From Eledone cirrhosa (Eukaryota): a DNA stretch of 64,000 nt. A program made the translations under genes and the position numbers. Below, piece by piece: positions 58,428 through 64,000 of this stretch. The stretch covers positions 86,924,001 through 86,988,000 of the forward strand of contig OZ024742.1 of assembly GCA_964016885.1 (NCBI GenBank), written 5' to 3'. Under the pieces are notes generated by a model. The model saw nothing but the letters and a program-made list of their open reading frames with translations, was not told the origin of the DNA and ran no database searches. How positions within the stretch are numbered: the first letter of the stretch is position 1; the number at the start of each line of letters is the position of its first letter.

Positions 58428-58989
<562 letters not shown>

Positions 58990-58996
<7 letters not shown>

Positions 58997-59798
58997 ATTG
59001 AGGTTGGTAATGGCACATGGAATATATAAGAGACAGAATACTTTTTTGTGAAAAAACATAATTTTATAAGGTAAGGAAATAATAAAGGGTATAAAAAATG
59101 ACCGGTTTCGATGGGTCTGCAAAAGCCATCTTTTCAAATGTTGATTAATATTAAGAAAAATTAATAATACGAAGAGTTAAAATTTGAGACTTGAAAATTC
59201 AAGTATAAAATTCATTGTGGGATTTCATAGCAGTTTTCATCTTGGTAGCAACAACAGGTTGACTGCTGTGTCCCTTTCTGGTAGTGAATGAGAAGTTATT
59301 TGGGGTGTGGGTTATTTTATAAAGGTCAGATTTAGCAATCGCCAGCTGCTGGTCAGTGAGGGGTGGAAGCAATATACACACACATATCTTCCTGTGATGG
59401 GTAGGAGAGTGGAGCGTGATAGAAAGGGATTTAGTGCACTTACACCTATATATACACACATACCTTCATCAAAATAACCCACACCCAAATAACCTCTCAT
59501 TCACTACCAGAAAGGGACACAGCAGTCAACCTGTTGTTGCTACCAAGATGAAAACTGCTATGAAATCCCACAATGAATTTTATACTTGAATTTTCAAGTC
59601 TCAAATTTTAACTCTTCGTATTATTAATTTTTCTTAATATTAATCAACATTTGAAAAGATGGCTTTTGCAGACCCATCGAAACCGGTCATTTTTTATACC
59701 CTTTATTATTTCCTTACCTTATAAAATTATGTTTTTTCACAAAAAAGTATTCTGTCTCTTATATATTCCATGTGCCATTACCAACCTCAATTTTCTCT
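58990..59798. repeat. Inverted pLTR pair of the Neptune-type PLE (58990-59318 vs 59471-59798)
   Basis: ~330-bp arms with only about two differences seen; abuts (TA)n(GA)n. Confidence 0.92.
59646..59693 (+). ncRNA. Hammerhead with a U3:A8 variant core (inverted copy at 59095-59143)
   Basis: TTGAAAA-GATGG(cttttgcagac)CCATC-GAA-ACCGGT-C; palindromic stem III, GUC site; weak stem I. Confidence 0.7.
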
Positions 59799-59862
59799 AT
59801 AACCTTCGCTTTGTGTAGAAAATTACACTTTTCATATATACTAACCTACGCAAATCCGGAAA

Positions 59863-60903
59863 ATGGCACTGGAACAAGACAACACAACTTCAAACTCCAA
59901 TATCAATGAGGAAATCCTGAAAATCCTAAAAGAGATAAATGGAAAACTCACCATTCTGACAAAAAAACAGGATATACCCCAAACCACCACACCGACTGAC
60001 AACCAAATTTATTTAAACGTTCAAAACGTATGCAACTCCATCGAAAAACTTATGAATACCAACACAGAACAAACGACATTGCTCCATATCAAAAACCAAA
60101 TGGGACACCTCTGGAAAAAACATCTAAAAACCAGAAAATTCACTTTCTGGAATATGATAAAAAACCTCAACAAAGCTGGAATTTACCAAAAATGGATTAA
60201 CTCAACACCGATAGTTTTACCACGTAAATTCCAAATAAAGCATATTACAAACGAACCTGAACCAGAAAGAAAACTCCGTGAACAAATGTCACTCAACAGG
60301 ATAAACATGGAAATAGAACTCCTAAAATTAAGGGCCACCTCAAACGAGCAAGAGTATAAGGATACTGATAAAAATATGGAGGAAGAATACACTAAAAAGG
60401 CCGAGGGAACAACCCTACAAAATTTAATCAAATCGTGGAAACAGGGCTGCGAGAATGCAGAAACTATTTCCCTTAAACGGTGGGAAAAATCCGAAAACTG
60501 GTTCCTCAAATATGAAGAAGACTTTAAAAGGACGCACCAAACAGGTAACCCCTTTATAAAGCATTTGAACATAACAAGAACTACAACAGACACATTTACA
60601 CCACCAAACCCAACACACACTAACCACAGGCACATCCCCCACCAACACAAACCCAATACGGCCAACTACACCAAAAGAAACACACCCAACCACCACAACA
60701 CAGGTTTCCGTAGAAATGCCCCCTACATAAACCAACGACGAAATAACATAGATCCAACTCACAACACACACACCACATTCCTCAGAAGAAATCCACCCAG
60801 ACCACTTGAAATCACAACAGAACTTACCCACAACCACACCAGACATCACCCTCAGTCCAACAAAAGACAACCCCAGCCTCAACACTCTGTACCACAGAAA
60901 TAA
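59863..60903 (+). CDS. PLE upstream ORF (ORF1): predicted coiled-coil/helical protein with a basic H/N/T/P/R-rich tail
   Basis: 346-aa ATG-initiated ORF directly after the pLTR; heptad-like EEILKILKEINGKLTIL and RINMEIELLKLRATSNEQEY; function is inferred. Confidence 0.7.
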   Translation: MALEQDNTTSNSNINEEILKILKEINGKLTILTKKQDIPQTTTPTDNQIYLNVQNVCNSIEKLMNTNTEQTTLLHIKNQMGHLWKKHLKTRKFTFWNMIKNLNKAGIYQKWINSTPIVLPRKFQIKHITNEPEPERKLREQMSLNRINMEIELLKLRATSNEQEYKDTDKNMEEEYTKKAEGTTLQNLIKSWKQGCENAETISLKRWEKSENWFLKYEEDFKRTHQTGNPFIKHLNITRTTTDTFTPPNPTHTNHRHIPHQHKPNTANYTKRNTPNHHNTGFRRNAPYINQRRNNIDPTHNTHTTFLRRNPPRPLEITTELTHNHTRHHPQSNKRQPQPQHSVPQK

Positions 60904-61059
60904 CGCACCCAGACCACATGAACCAACAACAGAACCCTTGCTCATCAACAACCACAACACATACCACCCCCACCATCACATTCACCCTCATGAAACAACA
61001 AGCTACAGACCCACACGCAACAGACCAACAAAATATAATCACACACAAAACTACATTCC

Positions 61060-61088
61060 TTTTTTAGGGAAAAGCCTGAAATACCAGG
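61060..61088 (+). promoter_or_regulatory. Candidate -1 ribosomal frameshift signal (or 3' splice acceptor)
   Basis: T TTT TTA GGG is in phase in the 60752-61126 frame; the -1 frame is the RT frame and is open to the ATG at 61096; small hairpin CCTG-AAATAC-CAGG 8 nt downstream. Confidence 0.6.
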
Positions 61089-61095
61089 ATACTCG

Positions 61096-63372
61096 ATGGC
61101 CGCCCCTCAGGAGAAACCAAAAATAATCAACCTCTCAAAGACACCTCTAACCAACACACAAATCAACATTTTAAGTAAGGGCCTGAAATTTACACCTACA
61201 CCACGTAAACCAAACTTCCCCGAAATGAAGGATGACATCATGGAATACTGCCGAAAGCTGCGACTAACGGAATTCTTCCACAACGACACCAACACTGAAG
61301 ACGAATCACTGGTTAGAAATAAAAGCAATTTCTGCCCACAAAAGGGAAGAAATAAAGCACTGGACACGTACTGCGAACACATCACCAACTTTCCCTATGA
61401 AAAAATTACAAATAAACACACGAAATCAAACCTATCTACACACGAATGGGAAGAATTATTCACACTTAGAAACAACCCTGAGATAACTATCAAAGAAGCC
61501 GATAAAGGCAGTACTGTTGTCATTATGAATACGGACTACTATAGGACCCTGGCACTTAACATTTTAGAAAACAACACATACTATGAAAAAACAGAAAACT
61601 ACAAACACACCAAAACAATGGGGAACCTTTTGACCTTACTGAATAAATACCGCAACAGCTTAACCACAAAAGAGTTTAACTATATAAGCCACTTCAAATG
61701 CAATACAAGCTCTTTTTACGGGTTACCGAAACTTCACAAATGTAAACCCATAAACGATGCATGTGACACCTCAACCAACAATTACATTGAACTAACACCA
61801 CCAGAAGACCTAAAACTCAGGCCAATTATAGCAGGCCCTACATGTGAAACCCACAGACTTAGCAACTTTCTGGATATCCTACTGAAACCCTTTCTACAAC
61901 ATATACAGAGCTACATACGAGATGACCTTGACATGCTGAAACACCTCCCTAAAACAGTAAGTGCAAATACAATTCTTGTCTCCTTTGACGTAATAAACCT
62001 CTACACAAACATACCTCACAACTATGGAATAACAGCAGTCCAATACTGGCTTAACACACACCCATCAGAAATACCGACACGCATCAACACAGATTTTATC
62101 ACTGACGGACTCCGCTTTATCCTACAAAATAACTACTTCACATTCAATGGTTCAACATACAGACAAGTATCAGGTACGGCAATGGGCACGAAAGTAGCAC
62201 CCACATATGCCAACCTAGTCATGGGATTCCATGAACAACAAATATACAGTCAGTCCCTTCTCTTATTTGGAGACTCTTTCCACACACACCTCAAAGCCAA
62301 TTGGAAAAGATATCTAGACGACTGCTTTATCCTATGGCAAGAAGACATGAACTCACTTACTACGTTTAAAAACATGATAAACAACATAGATAATAACATA
62401 CAATTCACAATGGAATCCAATCCTAAGGAATTAGCCTTCTTGGATATTCTCATCTCTGTAATAGACGGGAAATTAGATACAGATATATTCTATAAACCCA
62501 CAGATTCCAAGCAATACCTCTTTTTCACATCAAGTCACCCAAAACATACAAAACTTAACATTCCTTACAATTTGGCCAAACGTATATGTACCATAGTATC
62601 AGATCCACCTAAACGGGAGCAAAGACTAAAGGAACTAAAAGACACCCTTATCTTAAGAGCCTTTCCACTTGAAATAATCAACAATGGAATAGACAGGGCA
62701 AAACACCTAAATCCCCATCAACTTAACAATCCAAAACAGAAAACCACACTCAACACCCTGCCATATGTATCCACTTTCAACCCCAGAAATACCGAAATGT
62801 TTGATCACCTACACAAAAACCTCCCCATCCTACTTAAAGATGTAAAAATGAAGTCTATTCTTGAAACACACAAGATCCTTAAAAGTAAAAGACAACCCAA
62901 ATCACTTAAACGCATTCTCACTGGACCAAATATACCCAAACCAATCCTCAACCCTACAGTTACCAAATGTGGTAGAACAAACTGTGGAACGTGCCTCTAC
63001 CTCACTGAAGGACAAACATTTACATTCAAAGATGGCCAAACATTTACAGTAAAAAACAATTTCACCTGCAACTCGGAGAACTTGATTTACGCAATAACTT
63101 GCGGTGGGTGCAAACACAACTACATAGGACAGACGGGCACCTCATTACGCAAAAGAATGACCATCCACCGCCAACAAATCCGGGACGCTAACACAAGAAA
63201 AATCCCCTTGAGCAGCCATATTGCGAACTGCGCAGGAATGACACTACCCAACTTTAAAATCTTCCCCTTCTACAAGTGCTCAGATTCGTTCACACAGCAA
63301 CAAAGAATAAACAAAGAAAATCTATTCCTTAACAAATTTAAACCAAAACTAAACGGGTTATCACCCCAATAG
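61096..63372 (+). CDS. Intact PLE reverse transcriptase / GIY-YIG endonuclease (Neptune-type)
   Basis: IINLS, LSKGLKFTP, IKEADKGS, FYGLPKLHK, LRPII, SFDVINLYTNIP, GTAMGT, RYLDD, FLDI, YKPTD, CGRTNCGTC...C linker, LIYAITC..C...YIGQT..LRKRMTIHR, E and LN; 758 aa with no stops. Confidence 0.95.
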   Translation: MAAPQEKPKIINLSKTPLTNTQINILSKGLKFTPTPRKPNFPEMKDDIMEYCRKLRLTEFFHNDTNTEDESLVRNKSNFCPQKGRNKALDTYCEHITNFPYEKITNKHTKSNLSTHEWEELFTLRNNPEITIKEADKGSTVVIMNTDYYRTLALNILENNTYYEKTENYKHTKTMGNLLTLLNKYRNSLTTKEFNYISHFKCNTSSFYGLPKLHKCKPINDACDTSTNNYIELTPPEDLKLRPIIAGPTCETHRLSNFLDILLKPFLQHIQSYIRDDLDMLKHLPKTVSANTILVSFDVINLYTNIPHNYGITAVQYWLNTHPSEIPTRINTDFITDGLRFILQNNYFTFNGSTYRQVSGTAMGTKVAPTYANLVMGFHEQQIYSQSLLLFGDSFHTHLKANWKRYLDDCFILWQEDMNSLTTFKNMINNIDNNIQFTMESNPKELAFLDILISVIDGKLDTDIFYKPTDSKQYLFFTSSHPKHTKLNIPYNLAKRICTIVSDPPKREQRLKELKDTLILRAFPLEIINNGIDRAKHLNPHQLNNPKQKTTLNTLPYVSTFNPRNTEMFDHLHKNLPILLKDVKMKSILETHKILKSKRQPKSLKRILTGPNIPKPILNPTVTKCGRTNCGTCLYLTEGQTFTFKDGQTFTVKNNFTCNSENLIYAITCGGCKHNYIGQTGTSLRKRMTIHRQQIRDANTRKIPLSSHIANCAGMTLPNFKIFPFYKCSDSFTQQQRINKENLFLNKFKPKLNGLSPQ

Positions 63373-63667
63373 AATTGTCATAAAATATAAACACACATAC
63401 GCACGGAATCACTACTATTAAAGACCAGAGACCAATTCTGTAGAATCAGGTTTATTCATTGACAGACCATGCCTTTGTGTGACCAACACATCCATGTTAA
63501 ACCCTGCACGTGCACACACATATATCTATATATATATGCGCACACAGAATTCACCACTGTCGGTTGCGGGGCCCAATCTACATGAAGAACTCAATGTGAT
63601 CAGAATGACTTGTATTTTAATTTCACTGCCCCAACTTCTTATATCATGGAAAAAATATATGTGTCTG

Positions 63668-63713
<46 letters not shown>

Positions 63714-64000
63714 AAGGCCATTTCTCTGTGTGTGCGTGTATGTATGTGTATATGTGTGTGTGCGTGTATGTGTGTGCATGTGGATGTATGTATTGTGTGT
63801 GCGTGTGTGTGTATGTATGTGGGTATCTGGATGTATGCGTATGTGTATATATATATATATATATGCGTGTGTGTGTGTGTGTGTGTATATATATATGTGT
63901 GTGTATGTGTGTGTATATATATGTGTGTGTGTGTGTATGTTTGTATGTGTGTATGTATATATATATGTGTGTGTGTGTGTATGTATGTGTGGGTGTGTGT

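Follow-up and report, generated by a model that had tools for sequence, protein, structure and literature searches.

How is the reverse transcriptase (RT) of an endonuclease-bearing (EN+) Penelope-like element (PLE) translated when its reading frame lies at -1 relative to a long open reading frame (ORF1) upstream? The question is raised by an element in a 64,000-nucleotide stretch of Eledone cirrhosa DNA (assembly GCA_964016885.1, contig OZ024742.1, positions 86,924,001 to 86,988,000, forward strand; hereafter the window), for which an initial annotation made from the letters alone had proposed a gag-pol-like linkage through an HIV-type slippery site. We put at roughly 0.85 the probability that -1 frameshifting on U UUU UUA joins ORF1 to the RT-endonuclease frame in the family of this element. 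Comparison of copies, families and relatives strongly supports a conserved, in-phase -1 heptamer as the link between the two ORFs; the slip itself, the product ratio and the role of ORF1 we infer. Ribosomes would slip by -1 on the conserved U UUU UUA to yield a rarer ORF1-RT-endonuclease fusion, the unslipped product being a likely abundant, probably RNA-binding ORF1 protein. The features on which the argument turns are these:

59863..61126, plus strand: ORF1, 421 aa in sister copies, broken in the window copy
60871..60874, plus strand: run of four C (six in sister copies), a private 2-nt deletion that ends the ORF1 of the window copy at 60903
61039..63372, plus strand: ORF2 in the -1 frame, RT and endonuclease, 777 codons, intact in the window copy
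61060..61066, plus strand: slippery heptamer T TTT TTA (Phe-Leu codons), in the X XXY YYZ phase of the ORF1 frame
61075..61088, plus strand: 4-bp hairpin 8 nt past the heptamer, weak and not conserved
61096..61098, plus strand: ATG in the RT frame, not conserved among the families defined below (GTG in F3, none in F4)
61100..61107, plus strand: slippage-prone C run in the ORF1/RT overlap, interrupted by a G at 61102 in the window copy
61124..61126, plus strand: ORF1 stop codon TAA, with 19 sense codons between it and the heptamer's Leu codon

In the window copy, the ORF that opens at the ATG at 59863 ends at 60903, a second frame is open from 60752 to 61126, and the RT frame is -1 to this second frame. 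These coordinates of the initial annotation hold, as does its placement of the heptamer at 61060-61066, and the indel that it suspected within 60752-60900, masking an ORF1 of about 420 aa that would run to 61126, is the C4 run at 60871-60874: all 29 aligned sister copies (among the 30 best DNA matches of 40 scored, from 772 candidates) carry C6 instead, and with the two extra C their ORF1 reaches the TAA at 61124-61126 as a 421-aa frame, with the RT in -1. The full 427-codon stop-to-stop ORF1 frame is present in 12 of the 29, the others being 5'-truncated or interrupted by stops. Because its ORF1 ends early, the window copy itself could not make the fusion.

The heptamer sits within the 85-nt ORF1/RT overlap of the window family in the X XXY YYZ zero-frame phase, as in canonical -1 programmed ribosomal frameshifting. 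Since the 29 copies had been chosen by DNA likeness, we also gathered 52 distinct family copies by likeness of their ORF1 protein. A comparison across the family had been proposed as a check: the ORF1 frame runs to 61126 in 29 of 29 copies of the first set, and the context of the heptamer is kept in 50 of 52 copies of the second (the exceptions are one T>C change and one nearby deletion). Protein searches distinguished four families in this genome, F1 (the window family), an older F2 (L071, L075), a young F3 (L103) and a young F4 (L082). Between F1, F3 and F4 identity has fallen to 42% in ORF1 and 56-58% in the RT, and little agreement is left at synonymous sites (46 of 192 comparisons of conserved Leu codons are identical), yet the phase of the heptamer is the same in every family: all four read NNT TTT TTA G in the ORF1 phase, inside -1 overlaps of 67-88 nt. 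Of the F3 stretches, 21 of 22 retain the site, as do 15 of 20 from F4, where one has a substitution and four lack the junction. The coding body of F1 has no other T6 run, nor has that of F4, and F3 has one other; the chance of drawing the heptamer from codon usage, with Phe-Leu held fixed, is 0.007-0.018 per family. Further canonical heptamers in the ORF1 phase exist, all of them upstream of the overlap.

Outside this genome, an ORF1 profile search matched 816 clusters, the best 150 of which measure at most 553 aa with none fused to an RT; an RT search gave 817 relatives at E<=1e-30, and the best 120 of these measure 640-803 aa, again with none fused, although lengths up to 1327 aa were searched. 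Taking as full-length the 75 of 150 ORF1 relatives with at least 330 aa, we found Phe-Leu within the last 50 residues in 66, whereas each of two control windows gave 4 of 75; the shorter relatives have it in 22 of 75. The residue before Phe-Leu is never Q, K, E, M or W (0 of 66; background 21%, nominal p 2e-7), an exclusion expected if the preceding codon must end in T (a pyrimidine). In a DNA survey that covered 62 of 82 fetched loci (match near the RT start), all eight metagenome loci with an ORF1 match carry the heptamer in phase (seven TTTTTTA, one TTTTTTG), and in L122 and L128 a stop directly before the heptamer closes the RT frame. In six further loci, a long zero frame without a match to this ORF1 type carries a heptamer at its end; by motif reading, three of the six end in an esterase-like domain, and esterases are mentioned in Neptune-like PLEs (PMC5408684). 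The frameshift may thus be older than this ORF1 type, to judge from its distribution.

Several observations weigh against frameshifting as the general rule in these elements. Nine of the 75 long ORF1 relatives have no Phe-Leu dipeptide; the eight metagenome loci are partly related, five coming from one record set, and the ORF1 match of L132 lies downstream in its contig. Most distant loci have no such site, among them two EN+ loci with a Cys linker (L130, L201) whose RT frame is open for 205-262 codons upstream, and therefore the trait is not general to all EN+ PLEs. Searching the ORF1 profile against longer proteins gave no match (weak evidence), no ORF1 alignment was confirmed in metagenome contigs and none of the RT in viral contigs; two loci matched in prokaryote genomes.

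Three further observations concern these relatives. The distant PLEs L137, L141 and L146 have an ORF1 ending in an esterase-like GDS...D-x-x-H domain with T TTT TTA at the ORF1 end, at distances of 3, 12 and 13. In the ORF1 relatives P0167 and P0179 (close to P0146/P0151), Phe-Leu is replaced by Tyr-Phe-Arg, 13 residues before the stop, which may be a different shift site. The PLE RTs P0016, P0045, P0048, P0058, P0102 and P0119 are filed under bivalve bacterial symbionts (NCBI) and are likely host DNA. We asked whether an Asp-Thr-Arg-Trp conserved across F1-F3 in the tail of ORF1 might be the true constraint and rejected this, as it is missing from F4 and from most relatives.

One continuous ORF in the consensus had been named as a finding that would overturn the frameshift, and in 8 of 150 copies ORF1 and the RT do share one open frame, of 918-1181 codons. 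In all eight the cause is a change of +1, +4, +7 or +16 in the C run (61100..61107), whose variation in length randomly joins or separates the two ORFs from copy to copy. A pattern for the C run matched 163 places, and the first 100 listed, minus 4 unrelated, left 96 copies, with changes above +7 beyond its reach; 64 of these keep the -1 relation, 16 fuse and 16 enter the third frame, 56 having the modal length. This length pattern is, as far as the copies tell, one of neutral slippage. A C10 insertion also occurs in a short-read contig, so that the insertions are not merely long-read error. No F3 frame exceeds 767 codons among 150 copies, nor is any fused protein found among the relatives listed. 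That the active element is a single ORF from which the -1 copies derive by indel is, on these grounds, extremely unlikely. The run itself is longer in 36 and shorter in 4 of the 96 copies, often with 11-14 C and the preceding G lost, and its length distribution is two-humped.

The initial annotation had also left room for T6-AG being a splice acceptor, whereby an intron would drop the low-complexity part of ORF1 and join an upstream exon to the RT. The four families in this genome all read TTTTTTAG, and introns can occur in PLEs (PMC8557442). A G also follows the heptamer in 45 of 66 relatives, where it likewise makes an AG, a point that counts against frameshifting; in the other 21 the codon of the next residue cannot start with G, leaving no AG, and in L124, L128, L131 and L146 the DNA itself has none. 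No phase-compatible donor scoring at least 7/9 was found in F1, F3 or F4, and F4 does not offer even 6/9, so that no phase-2 donor is conserved. Splicing would moreover leave unexplained why ORF1 is open through the site in one phase and why the T run contains no C on a C-rich strand. We therefore give the acceptor only a slight chance. A donor-like site at 60543-60551 (7/9, phase 1) is also present in F3 and is not there in F4; used with T6-AG, it would keep the ORF1 frame and remove the disordered tail. Contigs from three DNA-like read sets showed no GT-AG joint among 15 of 44 listed, these reads behaving as DNA and being uninformative on expression.

Alternatively, the AUG at 61096 could serve for independent synthesis of the RT through reinitiation or leaky scanning, on a bicistronic RNA as in L1. 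In F1 and F2 this ATG is in frame and precedes the first conserved RT motif by 10 codons, and many predicted RT relatives start with Met there, though it is gene callers that choose it. F3 has GTG at this place, F4 lacks a start before the conserved N-terminal motif, and the bases concerned vary at ORF1 third positions, on which account we regard the ATG as a by-product of ORF1 Arg-Trp codons. Separate initiation also leaves the heptamer unexplained, and we consider it very improbable. Hardest to credit is RNA polymerase slippage on the T run, which would add a base and bring the RT in frame. The homopolymer does lie within the overlap, but such slippage does not need a codon phase, and the phase is fixed in every case; six T are also short for polymerase slippage.

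If ribosomes slip at this site, what stimulates them? The small hairpin of the initial annotation exists, as 4 bp located 8 nt downstream of the heptamer; as a stimulator it does not convince, being no more stable than shuffles (z +0.8 to +1.0) and not conserved. Across 18 DNA sites, z falls below -2 for the downstream structure in only two, and a crude pseudoknot scan of the same sites found nothing above shuffles. The stem-loop or pseudoknot 5-9 nt downstream that is canonical for programmed -1 frameshifting is thus not found here, and high-level -1 frameshifting nearly always requires a stimulator (PMC7618472); both points speak against frameshifting.

What recurs instead is the distance to the ORF1 stop. 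Exactly 10 sense codons separate the Leu codon from the stop in 21 of 66 proteins, which places Phe 12th from the C-terminus, and in none of the 66 is the stop closer, against a null from the same kind of frame of 3.5% exactly at 10 and 52% closer. The same spacing is seen with the actual stop codons at 9 of 18 DNA sites, one of them with a heptamer of the A AAA AAC class. The ten residues between Leu codon and stop are unalignable and share no common sequence, and the spacing is retained over branches of 0.3-1.3 substitutions per site. In eukaryotes, collided ribosomes are spaced by 10 codons or sometimes 11, and human stop codons show an enrichment of disomes (bioRxiv 2023.02.01.526718); in E. 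coli reporters, stop-paused ribosomes stimulate -1 slips of trailing ribosomes, with a peak at a 9-codon spacer (Smith et al., 2019; PMC6815119). A ribosome that halts on the stop codon of ORF1 could thus obstruct a trailing ribosome positioned on the heptamer. The stop is 11 codons from the Leu codon and 10 from the next codon, matching a disome spacing of 10, sometimes 11, so that with the lead ribosome at the stop, UUA would occupy the A site of the trailing one (11 behind), whose move to 10 behind would be blocked; that move is the step where -1 slips are thought to occur.

We propose tentatively, and at somewhat below even odds, that a widespread clade of EN+ PLEs uses a natural -1 frameshift free of RNA structure, in which the stop lies one collided-ribosome length from the heptamer and the terminating ribosome is the stimulator. 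If so, RT output would scale with ribosome load and termination speed. For the window family itself stop-codon queueing seems unlikely, since its own spacing of 19 fits the collision model poorly; it could depend on the heptamer's own slipperiness, on the weak hairpin or on a longer queue. Much also stands against queueing at the level of the clade. The 10-codon spacing clusters on a quick tree, occupying 19 of 25 rows of one clade (approximate likelihood-ratio support, SH-aLRT, 96) that includes the window ORF1, and the trait needs 7 changes as against 18 when shuffled; the counts are therefore not independent and the trait is inherited. Other stop distances (13-42) occur in 45 of 66 proteins, F1 has 19 sense codons (stop 20 codons from the Leu codon) and F3 has 20, and in L137 the stop is 1 codon past the heptamer.

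We give an even chance to -1 frameshifting without queueing, a variant that is part of the 0.85 above and not additional to it. The heptamer would then act alone, or with a rare Leu-tRNA(UAA), or with a family-specific or long-range RNA structure, and the stop distance would have another cause, such as an action of the Phe-Leu peptide within the exit tunnel during termination, or descent within a single clade. The distance of 19 codons in the window family, the 45 of 66 relatives off the 10-codon mark and the clustering of that mark in a clade agree with it, as do the stable hairpins in L122 and L139; scarce tRNA-Leu(UUA) raises slips in HIV-1 (PMC7618472), and a nearby stop can act via RNA refolding (PMC8168617). 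It accounts less well for a sharp floor and a peak exactly at the disome distance with unalignable tails over such branch lengths, and for the recurrence of this distance in unrelated ORF1 types and with a non-Phe-Leu heptamer (L141, L142). A three-ribosome queue was tried as an explanation of distances of 21-22 and is unsupported (4 of 18 DNA sites, only 1 of 66 proteins). In the PLE L142 itself, the 590-codon RT frame has no EN motifs, its heptamer A AAA AAC shows the 10-codon spacing (about 1215-1260), and telomere-like CCCAAAA/CCCTAA repeats then follow.

The protein that would be made in excess has no known family. In an AlphaFold model built with 114 relatives, ORF1 forms five long helices over residues 9-224, with a predicted local distance difference test score (pLDDT) above 90 over about 70-230, followed from about residue 240 by a disordered, basic tail rich in T, N, P, H and R (net charge +19). 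The structure prediction and profile search that had been suggested for ORF1 thus returned a five-helix model and no match to a family or fold: Pfam has no family for ORF1, nor any common to more than one of the 114 members; fold searches with the model gave a best Foldseek E of 0.07 and a best VIA Z of 9.1, the latter to generic helical bundles; and an ESM Atlas search yielded no usable match. The coiled coil of the initial annotation is only partly borne out, by the long modelled helices. The N-terminal end of the family profile weakly matches coiled coils (best E 0.004); in a crude heptad scan, none of the 28-residue windows had 6 of 8 core positions hydrophobic. A model of a three-copy complex scored 0.01, the monomer fold itself being uncertain there. 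From its position, charge and expected excess, we suggest a role for ORF1 in RNA binding and assembly, like L1 ORF1p or Gag.

The element of the window is a young EN+ PLE whose copies are about 99% identical and spread over many chromosomes at internal places; a 35-base piece across the slippery site has 170 exact matches (control 0). ORF2 encodes a Penelope-type RT (RVT_1, Pfam E 4e-7) with INLS (61126), YGLPK and YLDD (62311), which we take to be PLE-type RT motifs, and with GLKF and DKG. GxKF/Y and DKG are named as PLE RT motifs in PMC8557442. A CX4CX2C linker at 62968 lies between RT and EN, and the endonuclease motifs LIY/YIG follow at 63082-63135, extending with CxxC and two His over 63082-63220; a Pfam scan of the window ORF2 protein did not match an endonuclease domain, and PF01541 is present in many full-length RT relatives. 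Outside the coding part the layout is as follows:

58927..59470, minus strand: inverted 5' pseudo-long terminal repeat (pseudo-LTR), 95.7% identical over 555 nt to the 3' pseudo-LTR, adjoining a (TA)n tract
58971-59326 / 59462-59817: inverted arms of the pseudo-LTRs
59462..59840, plus strand: direct partial 5' pseudo-LTR and leader, 98.7% identical over 380 nt to window-equivalent 64399-64776
63373..64000, plus strand: 3' untranslated part with TA/TG microsatellites common to sister copies; the element runs beyond the window

The 3' pseudo-LTR lies just beyond the window end, at window-equivalent 64254-64806 (in L203), and (TA)n tracts flank the element. Both inverted and direct pseudo-LTRs, of the kind that marks EN+ PLEs, are therefore present. 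An Rfam scan of L203 for a hammerhead ribozyme to E 1 returned only microsatellite noise, though minimal variants may escape it. The direct 5' pseudo-LTR of the window copy differs from sister copies by small indels at 59462-59560 and is 98.7% identical to its own 3' pseudo-LTR.

Frameshifting in two-ORF PLEs has been assigned to Athena elements. EN+ PLEs are described as single-ORF and two-ORF PLEs as EN-lacking (PMC8557442, PMC6431247), whereas here two ORFs occur in four families and in outside relatives. The legend of Fig. 1 in PMC8557442 allows for an ORF1 set apart by a frameshift and pseudoknot, in a clade that it does not name, so that this arrangement may in part have been described before. 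The literature covered (subscription journals, Repbase/Dfam notes and figures lay outside it) describes neither frameshifting in EN+ PLEs nor a natural eukaryotic stop-collision stimulator, and the word Penelope does not occur in the first 300,000 characters of the Atkins 2016 review. With Neptune and Nematis EN+ PLEs (PMC8557442) the element shares the RT, the CX2-5CxxC linker, GIY-YIG, the inverted and direct pseudo-LTRs and the (TA)n surroundings; those clades are known as single-ORF, whereas here a 421-aa helical ORF1 stands in another frame with a conserved heptamer, and no Rfam hammerhead was found. The assignment to Neptune in the initial annotation stands as far as an EN+ PLE with a Cys linker; because PMC8557442 gives that linker to both Neptune and Nematis, the two are not told apart and we leave the clade name between them. 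Athena and the Terminons (PMC6431247) have the same upstream coiled-coil-type ORF followed by an RT ORF, but they lack the endonuclease and are telomeric, whereas the window element retains EN motifs, sits in microsatellites at internal places across many chromosomes, and yielded no pseudoknot.

The comparison with HIV-1 gag-pol (PMC7618472) holds for the heptamer, the same U_UUU_UUA, and for a structural ORF upstream of enzymes in -1; HIV-1 uses a stable stem-loop, none is conserved here, and ORF1 has no detectable likeness to Gag, so that the heptamer is shared between unrelated elements. The engineered E. coli system (PMC6815119) likewise has the heptamer one footprint upstream of a stop with no RNA stimulator, but is artificial and bacterial with a 9-codon optimum, whereas the PLE case would be natural and eukaryotic, with 10 codons, as read from conservation alone. 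In SARS-CoV-2 the position of the zero-frame stop also matters for -1 frameshifting (PMC8168617), but there the proposal is that a stop at 5 codons allows a pseudoknot to refold, whereas PLE stops are never so close in 66 proteins and no pseudoknot was seen.

The two-ORF layout alters the single-ORF picture of EN+ Penelope elements, the sister group of telomerase: hundreds of sequence clusters (816 matches) bear an unannotated helical ORF1, probably tied to the RT in gag-pol fashion, and consequently the RT proteins of this clade in databases probably have wrong starts. For the idea that ribosome collisions programme eukaryotic frameshifts in nature, these elements offer ready test sequences, with the sharp prediction of a peak at the 10-codon stop distance. 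Upstream of the element, a separate MITE-like (miniature inverted-repeat transposable element) inverted repeat of 92 nt lies at 58551-58642 / 58763-58854, its arms 99% identical and separated by a 120-nt spacer.

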